DNA from: Delftia acidovorans NBRC 14950
GTDB lineage: Bacteria; Pseudomonadota; Gammaproteobacteria; Burkholderiales; Burkholderiaceae_C
DNA length: 32,000 nt
Assembly: GCF_001598795.1 (NCBI RefSeq)
Contig: NZ_BCZP01000007.1
Coordinates: 30,001-62,000, forward strand
Direction: 5' to 3'
In this document: piece after piece, positions 11,406 to 29,626 of the stretch
Layout of the letters: each line of letters opens with the position of its first letter
Position numbering within the stretch: the stretch's first letter is position 1
Program-made: the position numbers and the translations under genes
The notes under the pieces: generated by a model
The model's database searches: none
What the model was told of the DNA's origin: nothing
What the model saw: the letters and a program-made list of their open reading frames with translations, nothing else

Positions 11406-11424
11406 ACCGGCCAGAAAACACACG

Positions 11425-12288
11425 ATGACGCAAGCGCACCTGGACATCAACGCGGCCGGTCTGGCACCGGCCACCGCAGCCGCCGCTCAATCCGAGCCCG
11501 CCACCCGGGCCGCCGTGCAACTGGTGCCCGCGCGCCTGTCGCAGGGCGCGCTGCTGGTGGGCCCCGGCCTGCTGCTGGTGCTGTGGGAGGCGGCCTCGCG
11601 CCTGGGCTGGCTGTCGCCCGAGACACTGACCGCGCCCTCGCAGGCCCTGGTCGCCGGCTACGGCATGGTGGCAGACGGCAGCCTGCTGCCCCACCTGCTG
11701 GCATCGGCAGGCCGTGCCTACAGCGGGTTGCTGCTGGGCGTGGTGGCTGGCGTGCTGCTGGCCCTGGCCTCGGGCCTGACGCGCACGGGCGAGGCCCTGC
11801 TCGACGGCCTGGTGCAGATCAAGCGCGCCGTGCCCACGCTGGCGCTGATTCCCCTGGCCATCATCTGGCTGGGCATTGGCGAGTCCATGAAGATCTTTCT
11901 GATCTTCACGGCCGTGCTGGTGCCCGTCTACATCAACACCCACGCGGCCCTGCGCGGCATCGACATCGGCCATGTGGAGCTGGCCCAGACCCTGGGCCTG
12001 TCGCGCGCCGAATTCATCCGCAAGGTGGCGCTGCCGGGCGCACTGCCGGGCTTCTTCGTGGGCCTGCGCATTGCCGTGTCGCTGTGCTGGACGGCGCTGG
12101 TGGTGCTGGAGCTGATCAACACGCAGACCGGCATCGGCTACCTCATGAACCGCGCCCGCGACTGGGGGCAGACCGATGTGATCGTGGTGGGCATCCTCAT
12201 CTACGCCCTGCTGGGCCTGCTGTCCGACGCCGTGGTGCGCCGCATCGAGGCGCACGTGCTGTCCTACCGGAGGTCGCTGGGATCATGA
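11425..12288 (+). CDS. ABC transporter permease (SsuC/TauC-like, BPD_transp_1)
   Basis: Multi-TM protein with the EAA-type loop (ELAQTLGLSRAEFIRKVALPGALP). Its stop overlaps the ATPase start (ATGA at 12285-12288). Confidence 0.9.
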   Translation: MTQAHLDINAAGLAPATAAAAQSEPATRAAVQLVPARLSQGALLVGPGLLLVLWEAASRLGWLSPETLTAPSQALVAGYGMVADGSLLPHLLASAGRAYSGLLLGVVAGVLLALASGLTRTGEALLDGLVQIKRAVPTLALIPLAIIWLGIGESMKIFLIFTAVLVPVYINTHAALRGIDIGHVELAQTLGLSRAEFIRKVALPGALPGFFVGLRIAVSLCWTALVVLELINTQTGIGYLMNRARDWGQTDVIVVGILIYALLGLLSDAVVRRIEAHVLSYRRSLGS

Positions 12289-13010
12289 GCCATCACCCCA
12301 CCCCGGGCGCCGTGCGGCTGCAGCGCTTCACGCGCAGCTTTGGCGGCAAGAACGTGCTGGACGCCATCGACCTGGACATTGCCCCGGGCCAGTTCGTGGC
12401 CCTGCTGGGCGAGTCCGGCTCGGGCAAGACCACCTTGCTGCGCGCGCTCGCCGGGCTGGACGGCCATGCGCAGTCCAGCGGCGCGGCCAGTGCGCAGGGC
12501 AATGTGTCCGTGCTGTTCCAGGACGCGCGCCTGCTGCCCTGGCTGTCGGTGCTGGACAACCTCACGCTGGGTCTGGGCGCGCGTGCCGTGCTGCCCGCAG
12601 CACGGCAAATCCTGCACGACGTGGGCCTGCAGGACAAGGCCGGCGCCTGGCCCGCCACGCTGTCGGGCGGCCAGAAGCAGCGTGCATCGCTGGCCCGCAG
12701 CCTGCTGCGCGACCCGCACGTGCTGCTGGCCGACGAGCCCTTCGGCGCGCTGGACGCGCTCACGCGCATGCGCATGCACGGCCTGCTGCTGCGCCTGGTC
12801 GAGCGCATACGGCCCACGGTCATCCTCGTCACGCACGACGTGGACGAATCCCTGCTGCTGGCCGACCGCATCCTGGTGCTCAGGGACGGCCGCATCGCCG
12901 AAGACCACGCCGTGGACCTGCCCCATCCCCGCCGCCCCGACCATCCTGTCTTCATGCAGCTGCGCGCCACCTTGCTGCGCAGCCTGGGCGTCGAGACAGA
13001 GATCGCCTGA
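12285..13010 (+). CDS. ABC transporter ATP-binding protein (SsuB/nitrate-sulfonate-bicarbonate family)
   Basis: Walker A GESGSGKTT, signature LSGGQKQR, Walker B VLLADEPFGALD, H-loop VTHD. ATG verified at 12285. The longer track ORF from 11583 is an out-of-context upstream extension over the permease gene. Confidence 0.9.
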   Translation: MSHHPTPGAVRLQRFTRSFGGKNVLDAIDLDIAPGQFVALLGESGSGKTTLLRALAGLDGHAQSSGAASAQGNVSVLFQDARLLPWLSVLDNLTLGLGARAVLPAARQILHDVGLQDKAGAWPATLSGGQKQRASLARSLLRDPHVLLADEPFGALDALTRMRMHGLLLRLVERIRPTVILVTHDVDESLLLADRILVLRDGRIAEDHAVDLPHPRRPDHPVFMQLRATLLRSLGVETEIA

Positions 13011-13057
13011 CGCCGGCCCCGCCCGCGAAACAACCCACACAACAAAGGACTGCTCCC

Positions 13058-14425
13058 ATGTCTCGGCAACTGCACCTGAACCTGTTCCTCATGACGCGCG
13101 GCCACCATGAAGGCGCCTGGCGCCATCCCGGCGCCAACCGCAAGGCGCTCACCGACCTGGAGCTGTACGTCGATGCCGCACGCATCGCCGAGGCCGCCAA
13201 ATTCGACGCCGTCTTCCTGGCCGACAGCCTGGTCGGGCCCGAGAACGGCCAGCAGATCACCTCGGGCCTGCTGGACCCGCTGGTGCTGCTGACGGCACTG
13301 GCGCTGCGCACCGAGCGCATCGGCCTGATCGGCACCGCCTCCACCACCTACAGCCATGCCTATACGCTGGCGCGCCAGTTCGCCTCGCTGGACCATCTGT
13401 CCAAGGGGCGGGCGGGCTGGAACATCGTCACTTCCTGGGCGCCCAATGCGGGCCTGAACTTCGGACTGGCCGACAACGTGGACCACGGCGACCGCTACCG
13501 CATCGCCGAGGAATTCGTGTCCGCCGTCGATGCGCTGTGGCGCAGCTTTCCGGCCAGCGCCCTGCTGGACGACACGGCGGCCGGCCAGTTCCTCGATGCA
13601 TCGCAGATCCGGCCCGTCCACTTCGAGGGCAAATACATACGCACGCGCGGCCCGCTCAACGTGCCCGGCAGCCCGCAGGGCCGGCCCGTCTTCGTGCAGG
13701 CCGGCCAGTCCGAGTCCGGCCGCGCCTTTGCCGCGCAATGGGCCGAGGCCATCTTCACGGCCCACGGCTCGCGGGAATCGGCCCAGGCCTTCTATGCCGA
13801 CATCAAGGGACAGGCGCAGCAGTTGGGCCGCCGCCCGCAGGACATCGTGATCCTGCCCGGCATCAGCGCCGCCATAGGCTCTACCGAATACGAGGCGCGC
13901 CAGGTCTGGGAAGAGCTCGACAGCCTGACCAGCATCGAGGTCGGCCTGGCCCGCCTGTCCGCACGCTTTGGCGGCCACGACTTCTCGGCCGTGCCGCTGG
14001 ACCGCCTGCTTACGCGCGACGACTTCCCCGATCCCGACAAGGTCGAAGCCTCGCGCAGCCGCGCCGTGGGCTACGTGGAAACCAGCCTGCGCGACGGCCT
14101 CACCCTGCGCGGCCTGCTCAAGCGCCTGGCCGGCGCCCGCGGCCACCTGGCCGTGGCCGGCACGCCCGAACAGGTGGCCGACATCATCGAAGACTGGTTC
14201 AAGCACGGCGCAGCCGACGGCTTCAACGTCATGCCGCCCATACTCAACCAGCAGTTCGAGCTGTTCACCAGCGAAGTCGTGCCCCTGCTGCGCAAGCGCG
14301 GCCTGTTCCGCGAGGAATACGAAAGCCGCACGCTGCGCGGGCATTTCGGGCTGGGGGAGCTGGCGGGGACGGGGGCGGGTGGTGCCCCAGCCGCCCGCCC
14401 AAGGGAGCAAGCGCTGGCGGCTTGA
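13058..14425 (+). CDS. LLM-class flavin-dependent monooxygenase, NtaA/SnaA/DszA family
   Basis: The N-terminus LHLNLFLMTRGHHEGAWRHP is characteristic of the NtaA/DszA group, and the length is about 455 aa. AAAGGA lies upstream of ATG 13058. Confidence 0.85.
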   Translation: MSRQLHLNLFLMTRGHHEGAWRHPGANRKALTDLELYVDAARIAEAAKFDAVFLADSLVGPENGQQITSGLLDPLVLLTALALRTERIGLIGTASTTYSHAYTLARQFASLDHLSKGRAGWNIVTSWAPNAGLNFGLADNVDHGDRYRIAEEFVSAVDALWRSFPASALLDDTAAGQFLDASQIRPVHFEGKYIRTRGPLNVPGSPQGRPVFVQAGQSESGRAFAAQWAEAIFTAHGSRESAQAFYADIKGQAQQLGRRPQDIVILPGISAAIGSTEYEARQVWEELDSLTSIEVGLARLSARFGGHDFSAVPLDRLLTRDDFPDPDKVEASRSRAVGYVETSLRDGLTLRGLLKRLAGARGHLAVAGTPEQVADIIEDWFKHGAADGFNVMPPILNQQFELFTSEVVPLLRKRGLFREEYESRTLRGHFGLGELAGTGAGGAPAARPREQALAA

Positions 14426-14456
14426 CCGATGCGGCGCAGCGGCTGCACAGACAGGC

Positions 14457-15350
14457 CTACAGCAGAATGTCCGCCGTGGGGTACTTCCAGAAGTCGCGCA
14501 GCAGGTAGCTGATCGGCAGGTTCAGATTCGTGGAGCTGGGTGGAATCGGCTGCAGGAACCACTTCTCGTAGATGGGGTGGATTTCGCGGCTGGTGATGAT
14601 CCGCTTCATCTCTTCATCGACCAGTTTCTTGAACGCGGTATCGGCCTTCGGCAGCATGATGGCCAGGGGTTCGGTGGACAGGAACTTGCCCACCACCTTC
14701 AGGGCGCGTGGATCGGGCCGTGCAGCGGCCAGCCCGTTGAGAAGCACGTCATCCATCACGAACGCGTCGGCTTCGCCCTTCTCCACCATCTCCAGGGCCC
14801 TCGCGTGATCGGGGGCCTCCACAATGGTGATGCCCATGAGGCGCTGCCTGTTGGCCTGCGTCACCAGGGCCATCGGGCTGGTGCCCTTGGTGGAAACCAG
14901 CTTTTTGCCCTTGAGATCTTCCATCGCGTTGACGGTGCTTTCGGCCTTCACGAGCATCCGGGCGCCGGTGATGAAATGGGGAACCGTGAACGCCACGGTC
15001 TGGCGCCGCTGCGCGTTGTTCGTGGTCGAGCCGCACTCCATGTCGGCCTTGCCCTGCTCGATCACGGCCATGCGATTGGCGGGCGTGACCATCAGGAACT
15101 CCACCTTCATGTCCTTCCTGCCTGTCTGCTTGCGCACCGCCTCGGCCAGGCGAAGGCACAGATCCAGCGCGTAACCGACGGGCTTGCCGCTGCGCGTGTC
15201 GATGTAGGAGAAGGGGACCGACGATTCCCGGTGCGCAATCACCAGCGCGCCACCGGCCTGGACCTTGTCCAGCACACCGGCTGCAGATACACCGCTCAAG
15301 GCCGACAGGCCCAACGCACCCAACGCAATTCCCCACTGGCGAAAGATCAT
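14457..15350 (-). CDS. Periplasmic amino-acid-binding protein, GltI-like (glutamate/aspartate type), orphan
   Basis: HRESSVPFSY, ECGSTTNN, FVMDDVLL and KWF..PIPP...NLN match E. coli GltI as I remember it. A signal peptide follows ATG 15350. There is no adjacent permease or ATPase. Confidence 0.85.
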   Translation of the reverse strand: MIFRQWGIALGALGLSALSGVSAAGVLDKVQAGGALVIAHRESSVPFSYIDTRSGKPVGYALDLCLRLAEAVRKQTGRKDMKVEFLMVTPANRMAVIEQGKADMECGSTTNNAQRRQTVAFTVPHFITGARMLVKAESTVNAMEDLKGKKLVSTKGTSPMALVTQANRQRLMGITIVEAPDHARALEMVEKGEADAFVMDDVLLNGLAAARPDPRALKVVGKFLSTEPLAIMLPKADTAFKKLVDEEMKRIITSREIHPIYEKWFLQPIPPSSTNLNLPISYLLRDFWKYPTADILL

Positions 15351-15531
15351 CGAAGTCCTTGGATCGCAAGCGCCGGGCGGCGCCCAGCAGTGTCGTGACA
15401 GGTTATACACGTATTGTTACCAGATGTGCAAACCTGGCTGCTGGCGGTTTTGCCGGCACCTTGGCCGCTGGCTTTTCCCCCTCCCCCGTTATGGCAGGAT
15501 CACCAGCACCAGAATTACCGAGGGAACTCCC

Positions 15532-16506
15532 ATGCTGATCAACTGCGTCGCCTACGAAAACGGGGCCAAGCTGGCGGACATTCCCGTCGCCGACATCAGC
15601 AACTACATAGAGCGCCCCGGCTGCTTCGTCTGGGTGGCGCTGGCGGACGCCACGCCGGCCGAGCTGGAGGAGATGCGCCAGGAGTTCGGCCTGCACGCCC
15701 TGGCCGTGGAGGATGCGCTGCACGGCCACCAGCGGCCCAAGCTGGAGGAGTACGGCAGCTCGCTGTTTGCCGTGATGCACCTGCTGGAGCCCGAGCCCGA
15801 GCGGCCCGGGCACTTCAACCACGGCGAGGTCGATGTCTTCGTGGGCTCCAACTACGTGCTGTCGGTGCGCAACCGCAGCAAGCGCGGTTTCCTGGGCGTG
15901 CGCGAGCGCTGCGAGAGCGAGCCCGAGCTGCTGCGCCACGGCTCGGGCTTTGTGCTGTATGCGCTGATGGATGCGGTGGTGGACCGCTACTTTCCCATCA
16001 TCGACGCGCTGGAGGTGGAGCTGGAGCAGATCGAGCAGCAGATCTTCACCAAGGGCGCGGCGCGCGACAACATCAAGCAGCTGTATGAACTCAAGGGCCG
16101 CGCCATGGACCTCAAGCACGCCGTGGCCCCCCTGCTGGAAGCCGTGGGCAAGCTCAACGGCGGGCGCGTCCCCCAGATCTGCGTGGGCTCCAGGGACTAC
16201 TTCCGCGACGTGATGGATCACCTGGGCCGCATCAACGCCCAGATCGACACCATGCGCGACACCGTGGGCACGGCCATCCAGGTGAACCTGTCCATGGTGT
16301 CCATCGAGGAAAACGAAGTCACCAAGCGGCTGGCAGCCTGGGCCAGTATCTTCGCCATCTGCACGGCCTTCTTCGGCGTCTGGGGCATGAACTTCGAGAA
16401 CATGCCCGAACTGAAGTGGCAATACGGCTATCCGGCCGCACTGCTGTTCGTGCTGGGTGTTTGCGGCCTGCTCTACTACAAGTTCCGCAAGGCGGGGTGG
16501 CTGTAG
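15532..16506 (+). CDS. corA: CorA-family magnesium/cobalt transporter
   Basis: GMN motif (FFGVWGMNFENMPE) followed by the terminal TM helix. CorA-type N-terminal domain (HALAVEDALHGHQRPKLEEY). ATG verified at 15532. Confidence 0.9.
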   Translation: MLINCVAYENGAKLADIPVADISNYIERPGCFVWVALADATPAELEEMRQEFGLHALAVEDALHGHQRPKLEEYGSSLFAVMHLLEPEPERPGHFNHGEVDVFVGSNYVLSVRNRSKRGFLGVRERCESEPELLRHGSGFVLYALMDAVVDRYFPIIDALEVELEQIEQQIFTKGAARDNIKQLYELKGRAMDLKHAVAPLLEAVGKLNGGRVPQICVGSRDYFRDVMDHLGRINAQIDTMRDTVGTAIQVNLSMVSIEENEVTKRLAAWASIFAICTAFFGVWGMNFENMPELKWQYGYPAALLFVLGVCGLLYYKFRKAGWL

Positions 16507-16620
16507 GCGGCGGGAAGGCGAACGGTGCCAGGGTATTCCCCCAGCCGCACCGTCACAGCCGCGTCACACATCCACGCCACCATCCCAGGCGCCAACTCCT
16601 GGACGCCCGGATTCCCCACC

Positions 16621-17541
16621 ATGTACGACGAACTTCTGCCCGACCACCATGATTCGCTGATGCAGCGCATCGAACGCGATCTGCTCGACAGCTACGACGA
16701 AGAACTGGAGATGGAGATAGACGACGCCCGACTGGGCAGCGGTGGCGACGATCTGGACAGTGCCGACACCGTGAGCCGCCAGACCTACTTTCGCGAACTG
16801 CTGCGCCTGCAGGGCGAGCTGGTCAAGCTGCAGGACTGGGTGCAGCACCACAGGAAAAAGGTGGTCATCCTCTTCGAGGGCCGCGATGCGGCCGGCAAGG
16901 GCGGCGTGATCAAGCGCATCACCCAGCGCCTGAACCCGCGCGTGTGCCGCGTGGCCGCCCTGCCCGCGCCCAATGACCGCGAGCGCACGCAATGGTATTT
17001 CCAGCGCTATGTCTCCCACCTGCCCGCGGGCGGCGAGATCGTTCTCTTTGACCGCAGCTGGTACAACCGCGCGGGCGTGGAGCGCGTGATGGGCTTTTGC
17101 TCCGACGAGGAGTACGAGGAGTTCTTCCGCTCCGTGCCCGAGTTCGAGAAGATGCTGGTGCGCTCGGGCATCACGCTGGTGAAGTACTGGTTCTCCATCA
17201 CCGACGACGAGCAGCACCTGCGCTTTCTGGGCCGCGTGCACGACCCGCTCAAGCAGTGGAAGCTCAGTCCCATGGACTTCGAGAGCCGCCGCCGCTGGGA
17301 AGACTACACCAAGGCCAAGGAAGCCATGCTGGAGCGCACCCACATCGCCGAGGCGCCCTGGTGGCTGGTGCAGGCCGTGGACAAGAAGAAGGCGCGGCTC
17401 AACTGCATCTCCCACCTGCTGACGCAGCTGCCCTATGAAGAGATAGAGCACCCGGCCATCGTGCTGCCAGAGCGCACGCGCAATCCCGAATACACACGCA
17501 ACCCCGTTCCCCAGCACATGTACGTTCCGGACAAGTACTGA
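16621..17541 (+). CDS. ppk2: Polyphosphate kinase 2 (single-domain PPK2)
   Basis: PPK2 Walker A region (VILFEGRDAAGKGGVIKRI) and lid region (FDRSWYNRAGVERVMGF). ATG at 16621 is preferred over the upstream alternative start at 16525. Confidence 0.85.
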   Translation: MYDELLPDHHDSLMQRIERDLLDSYDEELEMEIDDARLGSGGDDLDSADTVSRQTYFRELLRLQGELVKLQDWVQHHRKKVVILFEGRDAAGKGGVIKRITQRLNPRVCRVAALPAPNDRERTQWYFQRYVSHLPAGGEIVLFDRSWYNRAGVERVMGFCSDEEYEEFFRSVPEFEKMLVRSGITLVKYWFSITDDEQHLRFLGRVHDPLKQWKLSPMDFESRRRWEDYTKAKEAMLERTHIAEAPWWLVQAVDKKKARLNCISHLLTQLPYEEIEHPAIVLPERTRNPEYTRNPVPQHMYVPDKY

Positions 17542-17550
17542 CACCCCCTG

Positions 17551-17598
17551 AGGCGCTTCGCGCCTTCCCCCTCTCTACCCGCTTTGCGGGGGAGGGGG
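17551..17598. terminator. Two GC-rich hairpins between the convergent ppk2 and giant helicase genes (possible bidirectional terminator or REP-like element)
   Basis: Hairpin 1: AGGCGC-ttc-GCGCCT (17551-17565). Hairpin 2: CCCCCTC tcta CCCGC ttt GCGGG g GAGGGGG (17567-17598). No clear U-tracts. Confidence 0.35.
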
Positions 17599-17679
17599 AC
17601 GACACCCTCGGTGCGGGGGCGGCCCTTCCTTGGTGTCTCTGGCTTCAGCAAGTGCCCATTTCATGCGCACGGCCGACTT

Positions 17680-20600
17680 TCAGACCTTATGCGCCTCGCC
17701 GTCCTCCACGGATGCCTCGGACGCCTCAGGCGTCTCTGGCGCTGGCGCTGGCTCTGCCCCGGCGACTGCAGCCGCCTGCGGCACCTCGGCAACCTCGACA
17801 ACCTCGGCCGCACGCTTGCGCCGGTCCTGCTCCAGCAGCGCGGTCAGCGCCGCGTGGATGCGCTCCAGCGTGCCGCCCGGGTTGACCCACCAGTCCGTGG
17901 ACCAGATGCGCAGAATCTGCCAGCCCAGGCCGCGCAGCACCTGCTCGCGCAGCTTGTCGCGGTCGCGCGCCGTGGCCGAGCGGTGGTAGGTGGCGCCGTC
18001 GCACTCCACGCCCGCCAGGTAGCTGCCCGCATGGTCCGGGTGCACCACGCCCAGGTCCACGCGGAACGAGGATGCGCCGATCTGCGTGTGCACGCGCCAG
18101 CCCTTGCGCTCCAGCGCCTGGGCCACGCTGGCCTCGAACGGGCTGTCGAAATCGCCCTGGCTGCCATGGTGCGACTCGGCCAGCGCGCGCGGGCCGCGCT
18201 CGGCAAATTCCAGGAAGTGCTTGAGGTCGCGCACGCCCGCCGCCTGGGTGCGCGACAGGTCCATCTGCTCGCCGCGCAGGCTGGAGAAGATGCGAAGCTC
18301 CTGCCGCGCGCGCGTCACCGCCACGTTCAGCCGCCGCTCGCCGCCATCGCGGTTGAGCGGGCCGAAGTTCATGGACACCGCGCCCGAGATATCGGGCCCG
18401 TAGGTGATGGAAAAATACATGATGTCCCGCTCGTCGCCCTGCACGCTTTCCAGGTTCTTGACGAAGACGGGCTCCAGCAGCGCATCGGAGAAAAACGGCT
18501 CCAGCCCCGGGTCCTTGCGGCGCTCCTCGTCCAGCAAATCCTCGATCAGGCTTTGCTGCTCGGAGTTGAAGGTGACCACGCCGATGGTGGCACCCGACTG
18601 CGCAAACCCCGGCGACTTCAGACGCGCCACCAGGTCGGCCACCAGGGCCTTGGCCTCGGGCTGGTTGATGCGGGCGCCACCTTTTTCATAGCGGCCCTGC
18701 ACGGCGTGGAAGCTGACGGCGCGGTCGTCGGTGACGGGCGAGGGAAAGGTCACCAGCCCGCCGCCGTAGTAGCGGTGGTTGCTGAAGGCGATCAGGCTTT
18801 CATGGCGCGAGCGGTAGTGCCACGACAGGTTGCGCGTGGGCAGGCTGGCGCCCAGGCATTCGTCCAGGATGCTTTCCATGTCGCCTTCCACGCCCTGCGT
18901 GTCGTCGTCGAAGGTGTCGGAGGTGTCGGCGCGGCCGAAGAAGCTGGTGGGCGGCAGCTGCTTGGGGTCGCCCACCATGACCACCTGCCTGGCACGCGCC
19001 ATGGCGCCGATGGCGTCCCAGACGGGGATCTGCGAGGCCTCGTCGAAGATGACGATGTCGAAGTTGCTGGTCTCGGCGCTCAGGTACTGGGCAATGGACA
19101 GCGGGCTCATCAGCAGGCAGGGCGTCAGGCGCAGCACGGCCGAGGGGATCTGCTCCAGCAGCTGGCGCAGCGGCAGGTGCTGGCGCTTCTTGGTGATTTC
19201 GCGCCGCAGGATGCCCCACTCGCTGTTGCGCTGGATGCTGTCGGCCGACGGCAGGCCCGCGCACAGCCGCGCACGTATCCACTGGCGCGTGACCGAGGTG
19301 AATTCATCGTCCAGCGCGCGGAAGTCGGCAATGCGCCGCTCATGCTCGGCAGAGACGAAGCGCTTGAGCACCTCGTCCTCGTCCACGGCCAGCGCCAGCC
19401 ACCAGCGCGCGTAGTTGACCTCGAAGGCCTTGGGTGCCTGAGCCGGTTCCAGGCTGCCGGACTCGATGGCGTCGGCCAGCGCACCCAGCCCGCCCGCGCG
19501 GGCCGCGGCCTGGGCATTGCGCCAGGCGCACCAGGCATGCAGGCCGCCCTGCCCGGCCAGCACGCCGCCCGCCGTGGCCGCCAGCTGCTCGGCCGTGCGC
19601 TGGGCCAGGGCACGCTGCTGCGGCTCGCCATGGGCTGCCGCAGCGCTGAAGGGGTCTATGGCCGCGTGCAGGCCGGCCAGGCTGTCCAGCAACTGCTGGC
19701 AGGCCATGCCGACCGCGGCGCCCTCGCCCAGCTCGGCGCTGCGCAAGGCCAGCACCTGGTGCAGGGCCTGGCGTGCCTGGGCCAGTTCGGCCTCCTGCCA
19801 GCCCAGCCCGGTCAGCCCTGCCTGCAGCGATCCCTGCAGGCGCAGCGCATGCTCCACGGCTTGCGGGCGCGTGTCCAGGCCGTCCCAGACGCCGGGGCAG
19901 CGCAAGCGCAGATCGTCCAGCGCCAGCAGCTGTTCCTCGATGGCGCTGCGGGCCGCCAGCTGCGCATGGGCCTGCTGCAGTGTCGCGCCACAGCGGCCCT
20001 GGGCCACGGCGGCGTGCGATGCCATCAGGCCGCCGCGCCGCGTCAGTTGCAGGCGCTCGCGCTCGAAGGCCAGCGCGTCCTGCAAGGCCTGGGCATCGGT
20101 TTCCAGGCCGCGCCACAGGCCGTGGCTGGCATCGGCCAGCGGCAGGTAGCCATCGAGCTGGCGGTCGATCTGGTACAGGGCCTGCAGGCGCTGCACTTCG
20201 GCAGCCCAGCGCTCGCCGCCATGGCCTTCGGCCACGGCCTCCAGGCCGTCGAGCGAGAAGGATTTCTGCGCGCGCGCGGCCAGCAGGGCCGAATTGGCCT
20301 TCAGGGCGCTGCGCGCATGGTCGGTGCGCGTGCGGTGTCCGGCCCACAGGCCGTCGGCTGCGGCGCCGGGCTGGATCTGGTCCAGTTCCTCGCGCAGGCC
20401 CCGGATGCGCACCAGGGCGGCCAGGTCATCGGCCACGCGCGGCTCGCCCGCGCCTTCGATGGTGGCCTCCAGCGCCGCGCGCACCTTGCGCCGGCCCAGC
20501 CAGGACAGCGGCCACAAGGACTTGCCGGCCCTGGCCCATTCGCGCTGCAGCTGCGAGACATTGAGCTGGCCCACGCCCGCGCCGTACTTGACGGACAGGC

Positions 20601-23600
20601 CCTGGCGCAGCGCCGCGATCTCGTCGATGCACTGCAGGCCGCGCTCCAGCTCGTCGCCCAGGGCCACGGGCCAGGGCGTGCCCAGCCCGGCCTGCAGGCG
20701 CCGGCGCTGCGCCAGCAGGTCCAGCGCCTGGGCCAGGCGCGTCTGCAGCTCGGCCGGCCAGGGCGCCGGAATCTGTGCGGACAGATCACCGTGCTGCGCC
20801 AGCAGCTGCAGGCCCGATTGCAGGGATTCTCCAATGCGCGCGCCGTCAGGCAGCACGCAGAAAGCCAGGTTGCGGCCTGCGGCCGCAGGCAGCGCGCGCG
20901 CGATCACGCCCAGCGCCGAGCGCGCCTGGCGTCCCAGCGCCGGCCACTCGATGCGCAGCAGCCGGCCCAGCTGCTGCGCCGCCTCGGCAAAGCCCTGGCC
21001 TGCATCGTGCAGCGCCTGGGCGGCATCCACCATCTGCTGCTGCCAGCGTACGGACCAGTCGCTGGCCTGCACCGTGGCCAGCGGCCCGTCCTCCAGATGC
21101 TGCGCGCCCACGGCCTGGGCATTGGCCTGCAGGCGGCCCGCAGTCTCGCGCAAAAGGGCCAGGCCCGCTTCGTCATGGGCCTGGGGCGTGGGCCAGTGAA
21201 ATCCCAGGCGCGGCAGCGCCTCGCCACCGGCCACGGCGCCAATGGCGCGGTAGATGGTCCAGCCGTTGGCGTGGCGCCGGTGCAGACGCTCCACATAGGC
21301 CGACAGCTGCTCGCGCAGGCGGCCAAGCTGGCTGGCCTTGGCGGCCCAGGCCTCGGCATCCACCTGGCCATGCGAGTCCCAGGATTTCTGCAACTGGCCC
21401 AGCACGTCGAGCTTGCGGCTCTTGTTGGAGTGCAGCTCCAGGCAGAACTCGCCCAGGCCCACTTCGCGCAGGCGGCGGTAGACCACGTCCAGCGCGGCGA
21501 TTTTCTCGGCCACGAAGAGCACGCGCTTGTCCTCGGCCAGGCACTGCGCGATCAGGTTGGCAATGGTCTGGCTCTTGCCCGTGCCCGGCGGGCCGATGAG
21601 CACGAAGTCCTTGCCGCGCGCAGCGGCCATCACGGCCGACAGCTGCGATGAATCGGCCGGCAGCGGGCTGAAGACCTGCTGCGGCGCGAACTCCTGGTCC
21701 AGCCGCCGCGTGTCGGGAAAGGCGATCTCCGAGCGATAGGGCTCGCGCGGCGTGTCGATCAGGTGGGCGACCACGGGCGAGCTGCGCAGTTGGTCGGCGC
21801 GCTCGGCCAGGTCCTTCCACATCAGGTACTTGGCGAAGGAGAACATGGACAGCACCACGTCCTCGCTGACCTCCCAGCCGCGCACGTCCTTGATCGCCTC
21901 GCGCACGCGGGCCCAGATGCCGGCGATGTCCAGCCCGGCCTCGTCGCGCGGCAGGTCGCCTGCGGGCACGCCCAGCTCCAGCTGGAAGTCCTGGCGCAGC
22001 ATCTCGACCAGCGTGGGATTGAAGCGCGGCTCGTCCTCATGCGCCTGCAGCGTGAAGCCTGAGCGCGCGCTCTTGCGCTCCAGCGTGACGGGCAGCAGGA
22101 TCAGCGGCGCGCGCACGCGCACATCGGGCTTGTCGGGCCGGCTCCAGACCAGAAAGCCCAGGGCCACGAACAAGGTGTTGGCGCCGCCTTCCTGCAGCGC
22201 GTTGCGCGCGCCGCGGAACAGCTCCACAAAGCGGCTGTCCAGCTCCAGCGGCTCCAGGTCGATGAAGACCTCGCGCCGCTGCAGCGCCTCGTCGGCGTGC
22301 GCGCCGCGCAGGTCTTCCAGGCTGCGCGCCTCGTGCAATGGCTGGCTGCGCGGGTCCTTGCCCTGCATGAGCTCGGGGCTGGGCAGCAGCTTGAGCACCT
22401 GGCCCCGGGCCAGCGTGTCCTCCAGCGCGGGCGCGGCCACCTGCAGCAGCAGCGATTTCTTGCCGGGCTTGAAGTTGAGCAGGGCATTGCGCAGCGACAG
22501 GTCCAGCAGCCGGCGCTGCCAGCGCGCCAGCCTGTCCTTGGGATCGAGCTGGGAGGTGGGCACTTCGCGTGTCTGCGCCTGTGCCAGGAGTTCGGGCGGC
22601 GGCTCCACGGTGAGCCGTGGCTCGGCCTGGCCTTCGCCGGCCTCGGGCGCGGCGTCCTGCGGCTGGGCCAGGGCCAGCGCCAGCGGGCGGATGCGTTGCA
22701 TGCGCGCGCGCCGCACGTCCACCAGCAGCTCGAACTGGTCCTCATGCTCTTCGGCCAGCTGGCGCGCGCCCTGGGCAATGGCCTGGCTGAAGGCCACGGC
22801 CTGGCCTTGCGCGGCCAGCGTGGTCTCGAAGACCACCAGCTCCTGCAGCTTGAGCCGCTTGCGCACGGCCGTGATGTCATCGACCACGGCGGTCGAGAAT
22901 TCCTGCCTGCCTAGCCACAGGCCCACGAAGGCATGGCCGCGCGTGAAGACCAGCAGCGGGTTCAGGTGCGCCTGCTCCAGGCAGGAGGCGAACAGCAGCG
23001 TCAGGTCCAGGCAGGTGGCCAGGCCCGCATCCAGCACCTGGGACGCGCCGCGTATCTTCTGGCCCGCATGCTCGAAGCTGGCCGGCGGCAGCGCGTAGTT
23101 GAGTTTCTTCTGGAGCACGGAAGTCCAGATGGCCGAGGCCAGTTCCCAGGCCCGCTGCGGCCCCTGTTCATAGCCGTTGATGGCGCCGGACTTGCCCGCC
23201 GACTCCAGCGCCTGCGCCGCGCCCTTGAGGATGCGGTCCACGGCCGGGTCGTTGGGTTGCACGAAGGCCGCCACCATCTCGGGCAAATGCCCCAGGCCGC
23301 CCCACTGGTTGCGTGCCAGCAGTTCCAGCGGGTGTTCGTGCCGGGCCAGCACCGTCTCTGCCGGCTGGCCGCTGCGCAGCTCCAGCCGCAGCACGGCGGG
23401 CTCGGCCTCGGTCAGGCGCGAGAGCAAGGCGCCGTCCAGCGCCACATCCAGGTCGGTCAGCGCATAGGTGCTGTGCGCGGCCACCGACTCCAGGCGCCAG
23501 GTACGCGGCTTGATGAAGGCAGGCTCGGAGGCCAGGTGCAGGCTCAGCGCCTGCAGCGGCAGCTCGCCCTCGTTGACGATGGCCAGCTCCAGCAGCGCGG

Positions 23601-23733
23601 GCACGGCGTTCTGGAAGTCGGCGAGATTGAGCTTGGCGACGGTGCCGATGCGCAGCTGCGGGGCCGTCTGCGGCGCCTGGGCGGCGGCGGGGGCGGCATC
23701 TGCGGGGGAATCTCGGCGGGGGTCTTCTGTCAT
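17680..23733 (-). CDS. Giant (2,017 aa) multidomain protein: transglutaminase/papain-like domain + DUF4011-like region + Upf1-like SF1 helicase (AAA_11/AAA_12 type, with a ~840-aa insertion) + DUF559/Vsr-like restriction-endonuclease-fold domain (DUF3320-type C-terminus)
   Basis: ATG verified at 23731-23733 and TGA at 17680-17682. TGase-like core GLATC(241)LDLTLLFASCLEQAHL...RGH(267)AFVGLWL...VVD(285)D. RLLDLSLRNALLNF region. Walker A GPPGTGKS (nt 21571-21594, aa 714-721). Walker B IVIFDEASQ (nt 19030-19056, aa 1560-1568). Further helicase motifs VMVGDPKQLPP, WHYRSRHESLIAFSN, VVTFNSEQ, VQGDERDIMYFS and RRLNVAVTRAR. Nuclease-fold core FRVD(1893)L...GVE(1910)CD(1912)GATYH...LRGLGWQILRIWSTDWW (nt 17884-18102). 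Confidence 0.9.
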   Translation of the reverse strand: MTEDPRRDSPADAAPAAAQAPQTAPQLRIGTVAKLNLADFQNAVPALLELAIVNEGELPLQALSLHLASEPAFIKPRTWRLESVAAHSTYALTDLDVALDGALLSRLTEAEPAVLRLELRSGQPAETVLARHEHPLELLARNQWGGLGHLPEMVAAFVQPNDPAVDRILKGAAQALESAGKSGAINGYEQGPQRAWELASAIWTSVLQKKLNYALPPASFEHAGQKIRGASQVLDAGLATCLDLTLLFASCLEQAHLNPLLVFTRGHAFVGLWLGRQEFSTAVVDDITAVRKRLKLQELVVFETTLAAQGQAVAFSQAIAQGARQLAEEHEDQFELLVDVRRARMQRIRPLALALAQPQDAAPEAGEGQAEPRLTVEPPPELLAQAQTREVPTSQLDPKDRLARWQRRLLDLSLRNALLNFKPGKKSLLLQVAAPALEDTLARGQVLKLLPSPELMQGKDPRSQPLHEARSLEDLRGAHADEALQRREVFIDLEPLELDSRFVELFRGARNALQEGGANTLFVALGFLVWSRPDKPDVRVRAPLILLPVTLERKSARSGFTLQAHEDEPRFNPTLVEMLRQDFQLELGVPAGDLPRDEAGLDIAGIWARVREAIKDVRGWEVSEDVVLSMFSFAKYLMWKDLAERADQLRSSPVVAHLIDTPREPYRSEIAFPDTRRLDQEFAPQQVFSPLPADSSQLSAVMAAARGKDFVLIGPPGTGKSQTIANLIAQCLAEDKRVLFVAEKIAALDVVYRRLREVGLGEFCLELHSNKSRKLDVLGQLQKSWDSHGQVDAEAWAAKASQLGRLREQLSAYVERLHRRHANGWTIYRAIGAVAGGEALPRLGFHWPTPQAHDEAGLALLRETAGRLQANAQAVGAQHLEDGPLATVQASDWSVRWQQQMVDAAQALHDAGQGFAEAAQQLGRLLRIEWPALGRQARSALGVIARALPAAAGRNLAFCVLPDGARIGESLQSGLQLLAQHGDLSAQIPAPWPAELQTRLAQALDLLAQRRRLQAGLGTPWPVALGDELERGLQCIDEIAALRQGLSVKYGAGVGQLNVSQLQREWARAGKSLWPLSWLGRRKVRAALEATIEGAGEPRVADDLAALVRIRGLREELDQIQPGAAADGLWAGHRTRTDHARSALKANSALLAARAQKSFSLDGLEAVAEGHGGERWAAEVQRLQALYQIDRQLDGYLPLADASHGLWRGLETDAQALQDALAFERERLQLTRRGGLMASHAAVAQGRCGATLQQAHAQLAARSAIEEQLLALDDLRLRCPGVWDGLDTRPQAVEHALRLQGSLQAGLTGLGWQEAELAQARQALHQVLALRSAELGEGAAVGMACQQLLDSLAGLHAAIDPFSAAAAHGEPQQRALAQRTAEQLAATAGGVLAGQGGLHAWCAWRNAQAAARAGGLGALADAIESGSLEPAQAPKAFEVNYARWWLALAVDEDEVLKRFVSAEHERRIADFRALDDEFTSVTRQWIRARLCAGLPSADSIQRNSEWGILRREITKKRQHLPLRQLLEQIPSAVLRLTPCLLMSPLSIAQYLSAETSNFDIVIFDEASQIPVWDAIGAMARARQVVMVGDPKQLPPTSFFGRADTSDTFDDDTQGVEGDMESILDECLGASLPTRNLSWHYRSRHESLIAFSNHRYYGGGLVTFPSPVTDDRAVSFHAVQGRYEKGGARINQPEAKALVADLVARLKSPGFAQSGATIGVVTFNSEQQSLIEDLLDEERRKDPGLEPFFSDALLEPVFVKNLESVQGDERDIMYFSITYGPDISGAVSMNFGPLNRDGGERRLNVAVTRARQELRIFSSLRGEQMDLSRTQAAGVRDLKHFLEFAERGPRALAESHHGSQGDFDSPFEASVAQALERKGWRVHTQIGASSFRVDLGVVHPDHAGSYLAGVECDGATYHRSATARDRDKLREQVLRGLGWQILRIWSTDWWVNPGGTLERIHAALTALLEQDRRKRAAEVVEVAEVPQAAAVAGAEPAPAPETPEASEASVEDGEAHKV

Positions 23734-23934
23734 GCGCGGTAGTCCTTGGCTGGCCAGCAGGCGGCGGGAATTGTCGAAATCCCGTCATATTCCTGGCCCG
23801 ACGATTGTCCGCTGCGAATGGGGCGCCGTGTCCGAGATGGGCGGTTTTCAGGGGTCACTGTTTGCAAAAAATGAGAGCACGGATGAAGGCGCCGGCCACC
23901 GGCGCGCCCGGCTCCAGTACGATGCCGGCCAGCC

Positions 23935-24822
23935 ATGCGCAACATCCCGCCCCTTCACCTCATCGCCGCCTTCGATGCCGTGGCGCGAAGCCAGAGCTTC
24001 AAGCAGGCGGCCGAAGAACTGAACCTTTCGGACAGCGCCGTCAGCCACCGCATCCGCGAATTGGAAAAGCTGCTGGGCACCCCGCTGTTCCACCGCACCA
24101 CGCGCGTGGTCACGCTCAGCGCCGAGGGAGCCTGGCTGCACCAGCAGACCCGCGCCCCGCTGCAGGCGCTGGAGACCACCTTCGGCAGCCTGGTGCAGGG
24201 GCGCGACGTGGTGCGCATCAGCGCCCTGCCCTCGTTCGCACGGCTGCGGCTGGTGCCGTCGCTCACGGCCTTTCAGCGCAGCCACCCGGACGTTTCCATC
24301 GCCATCGATCCGACCACGCGCACCGTCAACCTCCAGCAGGGCGAGGCGGACATCGCCATCCGCTTTGCACACCAGGCGCCTCAGGCACCTCTGGCATTCC
24401 ACTGCGAGCGCCTGCTGGACGACGAATGGTTTGCCGTGGCCGCGCCACGCTACCTGGAGCAGTTCGAGGGCCTGGATCTGGCCGGGCTGTTCCGGCGGGC
24501 CAACCTGCTCTCGCACAGCCGCCAACCCTGGGAGCCCTGGCTGCAGGCCGCGGGCCTGCGCATCTCGTCAGCCCAGCGCCAGCTCAGCTATTCGGACACG
24601 GGCTTCATGCTGGACGCGGCGCTGAACCTGCAAGGCATTGCGCTGGGCCGCCGCTCCCTGGTCCAGCGCCTGCTGGCCGAGCGCAGCCTGGTGCGCGTCT
24701 CGGACACGGCCATCCCCTGCAGCCAGAGCTATTTCCTGCTGGCTTCCGAACGCGCCATGGTCTCGCGCCATGGCGCGGCCGTCATGGACTGGATTCGTGC
24801 GGTGGCGGCCGAGGCCGGATAG
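23935..24822 (+). CDS. LysR-family transcriptional regulator (GcvA-like subgroup)
   Basis: N-terminal wHTH (LHLIAAFDAVARSQSFKQAAEELNLSDSAVSHRIRELEKLLGTPLFHR) plus an LTTR effector domain. Divergent from the giant gene, with a 201-bp spacer. Confidence 0.9.
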   Translation: MRNIPPLHLIAAFDAVARSQSFKQAAEELNLSDSAVSHRIRELEKLLGTPLFHRTTRVVTLSAEGAWLHQQTRAPLQALETTFGSLVQGRDVVRISALPSFARLRLVPSLTAFQRSHPDVSIAIDPTTRTVNLQQGEADIAIRFAHQAPQAPLAFHCERLLDDEWFAVAAPRYLEQFEGLDLAGLFRRANLLSHSRQPWEPWLQAAGLRISSAQRQLSYSDTGFMLDAALNLQGIALGRRSLVQRLLAERSLVRVSDTAIPCSQSYFLLASERAMVSRHGAAVMDWIRAVAAEAG

Positions 24823-24881
24823 CCGGGCGCCGCCGCCCGCGTTCACGCTTCCCACGCTCACACGTTCACGCCCTCACATCC

Positions 24882-25751
24882 TCAGCGCGCCATGGTCAGC
24901 GCAATGCCCAGCAGCACGCCCGCCATGGCCGCCGCCTTGGGCCGCAGATGGCGTTCGGCAAAGAACCGTGCCGACAGCGCAAACACCATGACCAGATTGG
25001 CGCGGCGCAGCACCGAGATCACGGCAATCTGCGCGCCCTCCATCTGCACGGCGGCCAGGTAGATGGACTCGGCCAGCACATAGGCCAGCGAAATGGCGGG
25101 CACGGCCCAGTTGCGCCCCAGCAGGCTGCGCAGCTCCAGCCCGCGCCAGATCCAGGGCAACAGCAGCAAGGCCAGGGCGCCGCGCTGCAGCGCAGACCAG
25201 GCCTGGACGGCAACCAGGTCCATGCGCAGCGTGGCCAGAATGTGCTTGTCGTACAGGGCATTGGCCGAGGACAGCAGCGTGGCCGCCAGCATGCACAGCA
25301 CCCACAGATTGCGGCCAAAGCCTATGCCCTCCTTCTGGCCGACCAGGGAGAACAGGTAGTACGAGGCCATGGACACCGCCAGCCCCAGCCATTGCCACCA
25401 GCCCAGTTGCTCGCACAGCAGGAGCACCGCGCCCAGCGCCGTCCACAGCGGCCCGCTGGCACGCACGCCCGCAGAGATGGACAGCGGCAAGGCCTTCACC
25501 GAGTAGTACGACAGCACCCAGGTGGCCACCATCATCAGCGACTTGGGCAGCAGCAGCATCTGCTGGCGCAGGTCCAGCGCGGCGGACGAGGAATCGTCCA
25601 TCGCCACGAAAGGCAGCCACAGCAACGCGCCCAGCGCCGGGCACCAGAACACCACCTCCAGCACGGACTTTTCCCCCAGCGCCAGCTTGGTCAGAAAGTC
25701 ATATGCCCCCAACACCAGGCCGGCCAGCAGCCCCAACACCATCCAGTCCAT
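24882..25751 (-). CDS. EamA/DMT-superfamily membrane transporter
   Basis: About 10 predicted hydrophobic helices in two similar halves, typical of the EamA family. ATG verified at 25749-25751. Confidence 0.6.
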   Translation of the reverse strand: MDWMVLGLLAGLVLGAYDFLTKLALGEKSVLEVVFWCPALGALLWLPFVAMDDSSSAALDLRQQMLLLPKSLMMVATWVLSYYSVKALPLSISAGVRASGPLWTALGAVLLLCEQLGWWQWLGLAVSMASYYLFSLVGQKEGIGFGRNLWVLCMLAATLLSSANALYDKHILATLRMDLVAVQAWSALQRGALALLLLPWIWRGLELRSLLGRNWAVPAISLAYVLAESIYLAAVQMEGAQIAVISVLRRANLVMVFALSARFFAERHLRPKAAAMAGVLLGIALTMAR

Positions 25752-25861
25752 ATCCGCCTGCACTCCTGCATTGACAAGGGTGCAAGCGTAGGAGCGATGG
25801 CCGCAGGCATTGCTGAGACCTGTGCGGCGATTGCGCAATCGCGCTCATGAATGCGCGGGCA

Positions 25862-27532
25862 TCACTGCGCGCCGGCCACCGCAGCCTGGCGCGCACCGGG
25901 CTGCTTGAACAGCTTGAAGTACGGCGTGTTCGACGGATTCACCGGGATGTCGAACTTGCGCACCATGGCATAGGTCTGGATCTGGTCGTGCAGCGGCAGG
26001 TAGATCAGCTCCTTTTGCACCGTGCTCCAGATGGAGTGGATGGTGGCGTCGCGCTTGCGCGCATCGCCCTCGGAGGCCAGGGAGACGATCTGGCTGTCCA
26101 GCTCGGCATTGCTGTAGCGCGTGGCATTGGTGTTGCCGCGGCCGTTCTTGCCGCGCGTGTGCACCAGGTAGTCGAAGACATAGGCCGAGTCATAGGTGGG
26201 CACGCCCCAGCCGTAGAGGTAGAAATCCGTTTCCTGGTTGTTGATGGCCGCCGTCTGGATGGCCAGCGGCCGGGACGACACGGCGGTCTTCACGCCGATG
26301 CGGCCCAGAAATCCGGCGATGGCCTGGCAGATGGCCTCGTCGTTCAGGTAGCGGTCGTTCGTGCAATGCAGGGTGATGCCGAAGCCGTTGGGATAGCCGG
26401 CCTCGGCCAGCAGCTTCCTGGCCTGGGCCAAGTCGGCCTTGCCCACGGCGCCAAAGGATTTCTCGTAGCCGTGCACAAAGGGCGGCGCAATGATGTTGGT
26501 GGGCACGGACAGGCCGCGCATCACGGCGCGCTGTATGGCCTGCCGGTCGATGGCCAGCTGGAAGGCCTGACGCACGCGCAGGTCAGCTAGGGGGTTCTTG
26601 TCCTTCACATCGGAATGCGACAGCGGGGCGGCGCCCACGTTCAGGCCCAGGAAGATGGTGCGGTTCTCGGCGGCCTGGTTGATGCGAAAGCGCGGGTCGG
26701 CGCTCAGGCGCGCAATGTCCTGGATGGGCAGGTCCTGCACGAAGTCCACCTCGCCCGACAGCAGCGCCGCCACGCGCGTGGCCTGGGACTTGATGGGCAG
26801 GTAGACCAGTTCGTCGATCTCCAGCGGGAACAGCCCCTTGCCCCAGTAGCCGGGAAACTGCCGCAGCACGGTGCGCGTGTCCTGTTCGCGCGAGGCGATG
26901 ACGTAGGGACCCGTGCCGTTGACGTTGCGCGTGGCGTAGTTCTCTTCCTTGGCCAGCGCGTTCTGCGGCTGCTCTGCGCCATGGGCCTTGGCCCAGGCGG
27001 CGCTCAGGATCTGGATGTTGATGAGGCTGGCCGGCAGCAGCGGGTTGGGCCCGTTGGTCCTGATGTGCACGGTGAAGGCATCGACCTTGGTCACGTCGGT
27101 GATCGAGGTCAGCAGCGAGCGCATGTCCGAGGTGGCCGAGCGCGCGCGGCGCAGAGAGAACAGCACGTCGTCGGCCGTGAACAGGCTGCCGTCATGGAAC
27201 TTCACGCCCTTGCGCAGCTTGAACTCCCAGACCGAGGGGTCGGCAGTCAGCGCCCAGGACGTGGCCAGGGTGGGCAGCAGCTTGCCATCGGCCGTGCGGA
27301 TGATCAGCGGCTCGTAGATCTGGTGCAGCAGGTTGTGGTTGGGGCCGTTGTTCAGCGCATGCGGGTCCAGCGTGGAGGCATCGGTGGAGCGCGCCCAGCG
27401 CAGGGTTTCGGCCTGGGCGGGCGGTGCGCACAGCAGGGCTGCGGCCAGGGCGGGAAGCAGTGCGGAAGTTCGCAGGGTGCGCAAGTGGGTGCGCAGCAGG
27501 GAAAGGCGAGGCAGGAAGCGTCTTTGGGTCAT
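25862..27532 (-). CDS. ABC transporter substrate-binding protein, family 5 (DppA/OppA-like peptide/nickel binding), orphan
   Basis: Signal peptide ending APPAQA. Family-5 SBP pattern (ETLRWARSTDASTLDPHALNNGPNHNLLHQIYEPLI...TSWALTADPSVWEFKLRKGVKFHDG). ATG verified at 27530-27532. The 701-aa track ORF is an upstream extension into the peptidase gene. Confidence 0.85.
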   Translation of the reverse strand: MTQRRFLPRLSLLRTHLRTLRTSALLPALAAALLCAPPAQAETLRWARSTDASTLDPHALNNGPNHNLLHQIYEPLIIRTADGKLLPTLATSWALTADPSVWEFKLRKGVKFHDGSLFTADDVLFSLRRARSATSDMRSLLTSITDVTKVDAFTVHIRTNGPNPLLPASLINIQILSAAWAKAHGAEQPQNALAKEENYATRNVNGTGPYVIASREQDTRTVLRQFPGYWGKGLFPLEIDELVYLPIKSQATRVAALLSGEVDFVQDLPIQDIARLSADPRFRINQAAENRTIFLGLNVGAAPLSHSDVKDKNPLADLRVRQAFQLAIDRQAIQRAVMRGLSVPTNIIAPPFVHGYEKSFGAVGKADLAQARKLLAEAGYPNGFGITLHCTNDRYLNDEAICQAIAGFLGRIGVKTAVSSRPLAIQTAAINNQETDFYLYGWGVPTYDSAYVFDYLVHTRGKNGRGNTNATRYSNAELDSQIVSLASEGDARKRDATIHSIWSTVQKELIYLPLHDQIQTYAMVRKFDIPVNPSNTPYFKLFKQPGARQAAVAGAQ

Positions 27533-29120: not shown

Positions 29121-29236
29121 GGTGCTGGCAAAGCGCGCCAGCCTAAGGGCCGACTCCGCTTGGCGCAAACACGCCTGCCGCATATGCAAAGCAGAAATGA
29201 TTGGTGGACGTCTGCGTGCAGGCGGGCCGCAGCCGC

Positions 29237-29626
29237 TCAGTCCAGAAAGCGCGCGGCCACCTGCGGATCGGGCACCATGCACTGCGCGCTGCGGCCAAAC
29301 CAGCGGTAGCGGTTGCGGGCCAGCCAGCGGTACAGCCCATCGCGCAGGGGGCGGGGAATCAGCCACGCCGCCCATGCCAGCCGCCAGGGCCAGCCCAGGC
29401 CATGGAGCACGCGCAGGATGGCGTCCGTGTGCTGCCAGGAACGGTCCCCATCCACCAGCAGCAGCGTCTGCAGACCTTCGACCCGCAGGCCTGCATCGGC
29501 CAGCATCCTGCCGCCGGCCTCGCCCTGGATGGAGGCAAAGCGGAACCTGCCGCGCCTGTCGTGCCTCAGCAGAAACTGCACCCAGCCATTGCACAGCAGG
29601 CATTGGCCATCGAACACCACAATCAT
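29237..29626 (-). CDS. DCC-family thiol-disulfide oxidoreductase (DUF393)
   Basis: The N-terminal FDGQCLLCNGWVQFLLRHD motif (DxxCxxC) defines the DCC family. A strong SD (AAGGAGGG) precedes the ATG. The start overlaps the upstream stop (ATGA at 29623-29626). Confidence 0.85.
   Translation of the reverse strand: MIVVFDGQCLLCNGWVQFLLRHDRRGRFRFASIQGEAGGRMLADAGLRVEGLQTLLLVDGDRSWQHTDAILRVLHGLGWPWRLAWAAWLIPRPLRDGLYRWLARNRYRWFGRSAQCMVPDPQVAARFLD

Follow-up and report, generated by a model that had tools for sequence, protein, structure and literature searches.

What does a bacterial cell gain from a single gene that joins a papain-like core, a helicase and a nuclease in one polypeptide of about two thousand residues? 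We ask this question for a gene in Delftia acidovorans NBRC 14950 that lies on the reverse strand of a 32,000-nucleotide stretch (contig NZ_BCZP01000007.1, positions 30,001 to 62,000; assembly GCF_001598795.1), the whole of which is called the window below. The original prediction, made from the letters of this DNA, took the gene for a candidate of an uncharacterised surveillance or defence-like system. Our analysis indicates that it is likely a chromosomal, stand-alone gene of the ProA family, encoding a single-protein helicase-nuclease that acts against phages or, more broadly, against mobile DNA; we hold this defence reading for the family and for the Delftia member alike.

Curated family models give the most direct answer. 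The protein scores 2194 bits against the NCBIfam equivalog NF058533 (“anti-phage protein ProA”; curated cut-off 1500), with residues 36-2007 aligned to model positions 1-1742 of 1903 and the rest of the model unmatched. In PADLOC the top match is the single-gene defence candidate PDC-S37 (1189 bits, E-value 0) and the second is Hhe (569 bits). The NCBIfam model of Hhe (NF042953) gives 831 bits, below its cut-off of 2000, and the best stretch of that match is the C-terminal third of the protein (residues 1345-1988 versus model positions 1065-1705). Four relatives, from Raoultella, Pseudomonas aeruginosa, another Pseudomonas and Xanthomonas, reach 2224-2439 bits over the full ProA model (positions 1-1903). 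Judged by these profiles, the Delftia protein would be a fairly ordinary member of the ProA family, set apart mainly by the loss of a DNA-binding tail. The single-gene defence logic that had been proposed for the gene fits these three matches. The word “uncharacterised” does not, since ProA is a named equivalog and the architecture was described in 2013 (PMC3710099).

The gene itself is real, and all four of its predicted domains are supported, the papain-like core with moderate confidence. The open reading frame (ORF) starts with ATG and runs without interruption for 2,017 amino acids, as originally read; its G+C content at third codon positions (GC3) is 0.90, the level of real genes in the window, and two other copies from the Delftia lineage share its N-terminus MTEDPRRD. 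An exact sequence look-up finds the protein identical to WP_034395724.1, recorded as “DUF4011 domain-containing protein [Delftia acidovorans]”. A likely ribosome-binding site precedes the start codon; the region 23600-24000 yielded no sigma-70 consensus promoter, and a look for consensus promoters and terminators at both gene ends gave nothing convincing. A 1,355 amino acid long antisense ORF (17584-21651, forward strand) is a high-GC shadow and not a gene; it failed the filter for likely genes that is based on GC3 and GC2 (second codon positions). The features of the gene are listed below from its 5′ end, with the evidence for each.

17680..23733, reverse strand: whole ProA-family gene, 2,017 codons plus stop (ORF and translation, NCBIfam NF058533, exact sequence look-up)
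23743..23747, reverse strand: likely ribosome-binding site AAGGA, 9 nucleotides before the ATG (direct sequence reading)
23314..23658, reverse strand: beta-sandwich domain, residues 26-140 (AlphaFold2 model, Foldseek)
22678..23307, reverse strand: transglutaminase-like (papain-like) alpha/beta domain, residues 143-352, assigned with moderate confidence (model, Foldseek, invariant columns, dN/dS)
21997..22512, reverse strand: DUF4011 region, residues 408-579 (RLLDLSLRNALLNF...) (Pfam PF13195, E-value 8e-45, profile positions 1-158 of 158)
21448..21654, reverse strand: superfamily 1 (SF1) helicase part 1, residues 694-762, with motif I GPPGTGKS (K720) and motif Ia (Pfam AAA_11/AAA_19/AAA_30)
19111..21447, reverse strand: insertion of approximately 780 amino acids between motifs Ia and II, residues 763-1541 (invariant residues, dN/dS 0.25)
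18283..19110, reverse strand: SF1 helicase part 2, residues 1542-1817, with motifs II (DE, 1564-1565), III, IV, V and VI (C-terminal part of Pfam AAA_11, and AAA_12)
17845..18138, reverse strand: Vsr-type nuclease of the restriction-endonuclease fold, residues 1866-1963 (Pfam PF18741 REase_MTES_1575, E-value 5e-35)
17683..17844, reverse strand: short, variable tail rich in Ala, Pro and Glu, residues 1964-2017, in place of the DUF3320 of most relatives

Domain architecture and the missing tail

The DUF4011 region, the Upf1-like SF1 helicase and the Vsr/DUF559-like nuclease of the original prediction are all recovered by Pfam profiles. The helicase motif set is complete (I, Ia, II, III, IV, V and VI), and K720, D1564/E1565, Q1592 and R1808 are invariant. 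In searches against sequences of the Protein Data Bank (PDB), part 1 of the helicase matches IGHMBP2 (E-value 2.7e-10) and part 2 matches Sen1; as these are the closest solved helicases by sequence, the motor belongs in the Upf1-like group of SF1. The nuclease scores 119.8 bits against PF18741 (cut-off 38.2) and matches DUF559 weakly (E-value 7.5e-5), and its acidic residues D1893, E1910 and D1912 do not vary. The residues singled out earlier for mutation (K720, D1564/E1565, C241, H267, D1893 and E1910) were numbered correctly, and not one of them varies among 18 homologues that are 68-99% identical, the set used for all invariance statements in this paragraph. The insertion between motifs Ia and II has no Pfam family above threshold and nothing usable at an E-value of 10 either; it contains numerous invariant Trp, Leu and Arg residues.

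The N-terminal region is visible mainly at the level of structure. A Pfam scan of residues 1-400 at an E-value of 10 returns nothing usable, with no match to PF01841, and the same 400 residues have no PDB sequence match even at an E-value of 10. An AlphaFold2 model built on an alignment of 29 diverse homologues (predicted local distance difference test, pLDDT, 88.9) shows a beta-sandwich followed by an alpha/beta domain. The beta-sandwich (residues 26-140) is all-beta, with a pLDDT of approximately 96, and its Foldseek matches are Ig-like and other beta-sandwich domains. Since these matches swamped the search with both domains, the alpha/beta domain (residues 143-352) was remodelled alone, with a pLDDT of 94.9. 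Its Foldseek matches in the PDB are weak (E-values 1.6e-3 to 1, template modelling scores up to 0.39), and nearly all of them belong to the transglutaminase-like/papain-like superfamily: the putative protease 3kd4, the pseudomurein endoisopeptidases PeiP and PeiW, TglA, TgpA, PNGase, Rad4/XPC, a Cytophaga cysteine protease, LapG and arylamine N-acetyltransferases. The 29 homologues, whose identity goes down to 33%, all keep C241 and H267, and an Asp located 18-19 residues past H267 is kept in most of them; D285 and D286 are invariant in the 18 close homologues, and the family consensus has DD at 285-286. From the model, the fold matches and the invariant Cys and His, we assign a transglutaminase-like fold to residues 143-352 with moderate confidence, in agreement with the papain-like core that had been read from the sequence. 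When the N-terminal alignment was used as a profile to search the PDB sequences, the only match was to Rpt4, and it was put down to chance.

In all, 3,843 clusters at 50% identity contain this N-terminal domain. In the best 150 matches it stands at the protein N-terminus, and the proteins that are complete are mostly 1,740-2,400 amino acids long, the others being shorter fragments. The beta-sandwich and the transglutaminase-like domain together most likely form a sensor or regulator, or else a second effector of the peptidase type.

How strongly is the gene constrained? Compared with a copy of 91% nucleotide identity, the ratio of nonsynonymous to synonymous substitution rates (dN/dS) is 0.23 overall, 0.15 in the transglutaminase-like domain, 0.17 in DUF4011, 0.00-0.16 in the helicase parts, 0.18 in the nuclease, 0.25 in the insertion and 0.69 in the C-terminal tail. 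By these ratios the Delftia gene is under purifying selection and is maintained as a working whole.

The tail is the part in which the Delftia protein departs from most of its relatives. These, such as WP_003086141.1, carry DUF3320 (PF11784), which comprises two domains of the winged helix-turn-helix (wHTH) type, while Pfam finds no DUF3320 in the Delftia protein, so that the original grouping with proteins of the DUF3320 type does not apply to this copy. The convergent PPK2 gene lies just 139 bp from the stop codon, which leaves no room for a DUF3320 remnant. The length of the tail differs among strains through expansions of short repeats (EAS and EVV units), and proteins of the 90% identity cluster span 2,010-2,028 amino acids.

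Could the Delftia copy then be a decaying or disabled remnant, left after the loss of its DUF3320 recognition module? It is matched to the ProA model only as far as position 1742 of 1903, and the tail is of low complexity, variable in length and the least constrained part of the protein. However, the 6-kb frame is intact, the catalytic motifs are all invariant, and dN/dS does not exceed 0.18 in the catalytic domains. DUF3320 is also missing in 22 of 121 sequences (120 close homologues and the Delftia query; 21 of 120 without the query), and the forms without it make up two or more sizeable clades; on a neighbour-joining tree, parsimony counts six changes. DUF3320 is thus optional in the family, and its absence points to a stable subtype; we regard decay as very improbable. 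Since selection persists without the wHTH pair, this subtype must recognise its target through other parts: DUF4011, the large insertion or the N-terminal module. The subtype amounts to a natural deletion experiment on the domain proposed to recognise DNA.

Spread and surroundings of the relatives

Do the relatives behave as core genes or as mobile ones? In a scan of 185,579 species genomes, one per species, at least 570 species carry a homologue, and most of these are Proteobacteria; the figures suggest that the distribution is patchy rather than universal. Identity to the Delftia protein is 69% in Limisphaerales, 70% in Aquimonas and 57% in Roseateles, and some Burkholderiales copies have only 52-62%. 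As identity does not follow taxonomy, horizontal transfer is indicated. Two homologues from outside the Proteobacteria are closer to the Delftia protein than many Burkholderiales copies are, one on a complete Limisphaerales chromosome (OZ260084.1, 69% identical) and one in a metagenome-assembled genome of Planctomycetota (73%). They reflect either recent transfer between phyla or, for the metagenome-assembled genome, mis-binning.

Across the 80 loci that we compared, a cluster of flanking genes is shared by six loci at most. The lack of a conserved neighbour makes the gene a stand-alone unit and rules out a conserved operon partner. An apparent tandem paralogue upstream of the gene in two loci (L016 and L030) was also rejected, the 2,022 amino acid long product there being an alpha-2-macroglobulin.

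Several of these surroundings are of the defence or mobile type. In Xanthomonas arboricola (locus L031, positions 9268-23538), an HTH_3 gene lies upstream of the ProA gene, which is followed by the Wadjet genes for JetA/DUF2397 and for a 1,414 amino acid long, SbcC-like JetC. The same layout seems to recur in Achromobacter, Bordetella and Endobacter, according to flanking-gene clusters and PADLOC matches to JetA; similar flanking-gene clusters are found in five loci (L020, L024, L044, L057 and L060), and L031 is the one that was annotated directly. The layout suggests a defence island whose parts were transferred together. In Pseudomonas sp. SZMC_28357 (locus L022, positions 6418-16555), pheT, ihfA (himA, 178.6 bits) and the ProA homologue follow one another with nothing between. 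The core defence hotspot cDHS1 of P. aeruginosa has on one flank “a large DUF4011 gene” that is present in every isolate (PMC10250203). The pheT-ihfA-ProA arrangement is at the position of cDHS1 and looks like an “empty” version of the hotspot, and the DUF4011 gene at the P. aeruginosa flank is presumably an orthologue of ProA. A preprint on defence against RNA phages in which cDHS1 is mentioned proved to have no bearing on the gene. Other neighbours of the relatives include AbiEii, an integrase, PDC-S02 and a YhcG-type nuclease. A conjugative MOBH/MPF_G plasmid from P. aeruginosa carries a full-length copy, as do IncF plasmids from Raoultella and Klebsiella, and the P. aeruginosa variant occurs on at least 1,000 contigs. 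Plasmids, Wadjet neighbours and the hotspot position are all in keeping with the defence-like logic first proposed. A phage origin is ruled out, as phage genomes are essentially without the gene; the single exception is an unannotated, phage-labelled contig of 11 kb with a near-full-length homologue that covers 67% of the query.

An alternative is that the family is directed not so much at phages as at plasmids and conjugative elements, or that it serves mobile elements that compete with one another. The adjoining Wadjet genes of Xanthomonas, themselves anti-plasmid, with the like clusters in the three genera named above, would agree with this, as would the copies on conjugative plasmids and on elements of the integrative and conjugative (ICE) type beside toxin-antitoxin genes and a bacteriocin, the type IV secretion system coupling protein near the gene in a Pseudomonas locus (L037), and the near absence from phage genomes. 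Yet plasmids and ICEs commonly carry defence systems whatever their target, the NCBIfam name of the family is anti-phage, and Hhe, a relative, acts on the phages T7 and Bas63. We consider a mainly anti-plasmid family quite unlikely.

The gene at home in Delftia

The Delftia gene presents another picture. In three Delftia-lineage genomes (98% and 91% nucleotide identity) it lies between PPK2/CorA and a gene of the SBP_bac_5 family, and the 90% identity cluster, to which several Delftia species contribute, counts 290 members. As stated in the original prediction, the G+C content of the gene is host-like and no mobile-element genes surround it in the window. Its flanks vary: its immediate upstream neighbours, a LysR and an EamA gene (23887-25862), are missing in one of the compared loci (L028) and replaced in another (L025). 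The surroundings of the locus are rich in insertions and deletions, and the ProA-family gene itself is fixed.

Some of these observations weigh against a role in defence, and we collect them here with others that do. The site is fixed among housekeeping genes (PPK2, CorA and the SBP_bac_5 solute-binding protein); none of the ten neighbours of the gene matches a PADLOC model; and the gene appears near-universal in Delftia, as a core gene would be. The protein lacks DUF3320, i.e., the last approximately 160 positions of the ProA model with the two wHTH domains. The study in which ProA received its name did not turn up in a search of the literature, so “anti-phage” rests on the curated family name. 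Finally, the substrate (DNA or RNA), the polarity and the trigger of the protein are matters that we infer. The caution first voiced about a “domesticated” copy was fair, given the fixed site in three genomes and the missing defence and mobile neighbours.

Is the protein, then, a housekeeping helicase-nuclease for genome maintenance, which deals with R-loops, stalled forks or damaged host DNA in the manner of Sen1, IGHMBP2 and other Upf1-like helicases and is no immune protein in Delftia? The fixed PPK2/SBP_bac_5 site, the host-like G+C content, the lack of defence or mobile neighbours, the 290 cluster members across Delftia species, the DUF4011 gene that every P. aeruginosa isolate has as part of its core (PMC10250203) and the kinship of the motor to IGHMBP2 and Sen1 would all suit such a role. 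Outside Delftia, however, synteny is not conserved and repair or replication neighbours are absent; homologues sit on conjugative plasmids and beside Wadjet, AbiEii and integrases; their identities are incongruent with taxonomy; the count of at least 570 matching species suggests patchy spread; and the curated name of the family is that of an anti-phage protein. A housekeeping role seems to us rather unlikely, and the defence reading is retained. Taken as a whole, the original interpretation is partly supported.

Proteins of the ProA type might include an immune gene that certain genera retain vertically as a “core” gene (Delftia, and perhaps P. aeruginosa at the cDHS1 flank), with the Cys-His domain as a working peptidase or isopeptidase that serves as a sensor of phage proteins or as an effector directed at proteins. 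We offer this joint proposal tentatively, as possible though doubtful. If it were true, the repeated loss of the wHTH tail would mean that recognition of invaders needs no wHTH, the domain long assumed responsible. The Delftia case illustrates how a large immune module made of one protein may settle as a stable chromosomal gene, with relatives that still travel on plasmids and in defence islands.

The rest of the window offers a few side observations. A block with DCC1 and saccharopine dehydrogenase genes (29186-31392) is missing in both L025 and L028, and a block of NMT1, ABC-transporter and luciferase-like genes (10300-15492) is missing in L028. The only low-GC stretch (6001-7302; G+C 0.525 in 6001-7000) overlaps the start of a pentapeptide-repeat gene (6595-7302, forward strand) and may be foreign DNA. 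At 634-6252 lies a cluster that resembles a signalling module of the partner-switching or stressosome type, consisting of a hybrid kinase with PAS and receiver domains (634-2640), a HisKA/HATPase kinase (2641-3537), a kinase-like HATPase_c_2 gene (3498-4592) and a gene with RsbRD_N and STAS domains (5308-6252).

Proposed mechanism and known systems

How might such a protein work? One protein combines an intact SF1 ATPase, a Vsr-type nuclease and a Cys-His module, and neither a methyltransferase nor a partner gene accompanies it. The best reading is a modification-independent helicase-nuclease that acts by restriction or by abortive infection. In the scheme that we propose, the protein would stay inactive until a cue made by the infection appears; by analogy with Hhe, the cue may be a consequence of phage DNA metabolism and not the modification state of the DNA. 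The SF1 motor would then load and translocate along invading or replicating nucleic acid and hand the substrate to the C-terminal nuclease, which would cut it, the outcome being restriction or growth arrest. The N-terminal module may sense, regulate or add a peptidase activity. We have much less confidence in any single step than in the defence reading.

The original prediction likened the protein to Mokosh-type systems. Both do join a helicase core of the COG1112/Upf1-like kind to a nuclease as a design for defence, but the comparison is weak. The hidden Markov models of MkoA and MkoC match the helicase core only (E-values 1.7e-34 and 6.4e-24), and the nuclease of Mokosh is of the PLD type, whereas Pfam finds a Vsr-type nuclease and no PLD nuclease in the Delftia protein. 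The neighbourhood of the Delftia gene contains no MkoB-like partner gene. With the match confined to the helicase core, membership in Mokosh is ruled out.

Hhe (NF042953; PADLOC PDLC02194) is a closer case, having DUF4011, an SF1 helicase and a Vsr-type nuclease on one polypeptide, as the Delftia protein does. It is reportedly the single-gene system of Gao et al. 2020. Hhe, a single helicase-nuclease gene, becomes toxic when g40 of phage Bas63 is co-expressed, and several T7 genes of DNA metabolism act as its triggers (bioRxiv 10.1101/2024.10.10.617714), which suggests that Hhe senses a consequence of phage DNA metabolism. The original prediction knew of no experimentally assigned role for proteins of the DUF4011/DUF3320 type; Hhe, itself a helicase-nuclease with DUF4011, is established as an anti-phage system and is in experimental use (bioRxiv 10.1101/2024.10.10.617714). 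By its score against the equivalog model, the Delftia protein is a sub-threshold relative of Hhe, and the two probably share the logic of a motor plus a nuclease.

The architecture has an older description. Anantharaman et al. (2013; PMC3710099) described giant proteins of the MTES_1575 type, with HEPN, transglutaminase, SF1 helicase, Vsr-family restriction endonuclease and two wHTH domains. These were predicted to act in a modification-independent, restriction-like defence in which the wHTH pair, equated with DUF3320, recognises DNA, and the transglutaminase domain was suggested to add protein cleavage (PMC3710099). The Delftia protein shares with them the SF1 helicase and the Vsr-family nuclease, together with a putative transglutaminase-like peptidase domain and again without a methyltransferase, and its nuclease falls in the Pfam family named for MTES_1575. 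It differs in having a beta-sandwich at the N-terminus and no HEPN domain (no Pfam match in residues 1-400 at an E-value of 10), and in being without the C-terminal wHTH pair. The ProA family is the proteobacterial form of these giants.

ProA (NF058533), the equivalent of the PADLOC candidate PDC-S37, is the nearest of all. The domain order from the N-terminal module through the Vsr-type nuclease is common to both; both are single-gene units, and plasmid and chromosomal relatives match NF058533 alike. Unlike its ProA relatives, the Delftia gene has housekeeping surroundings, and in addition to the truncated C-terminus its product has approximately 230 residues more than the model. Both the architecture and the family are thus already known, being named in NCBIfam, listed as a candidate in PADLOC and described computationally in 2013, while the Delftia protein itself is unstudied. 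The value of the gene is not that of a new kind of system; it lies in offering a good experimental representative of a known one.

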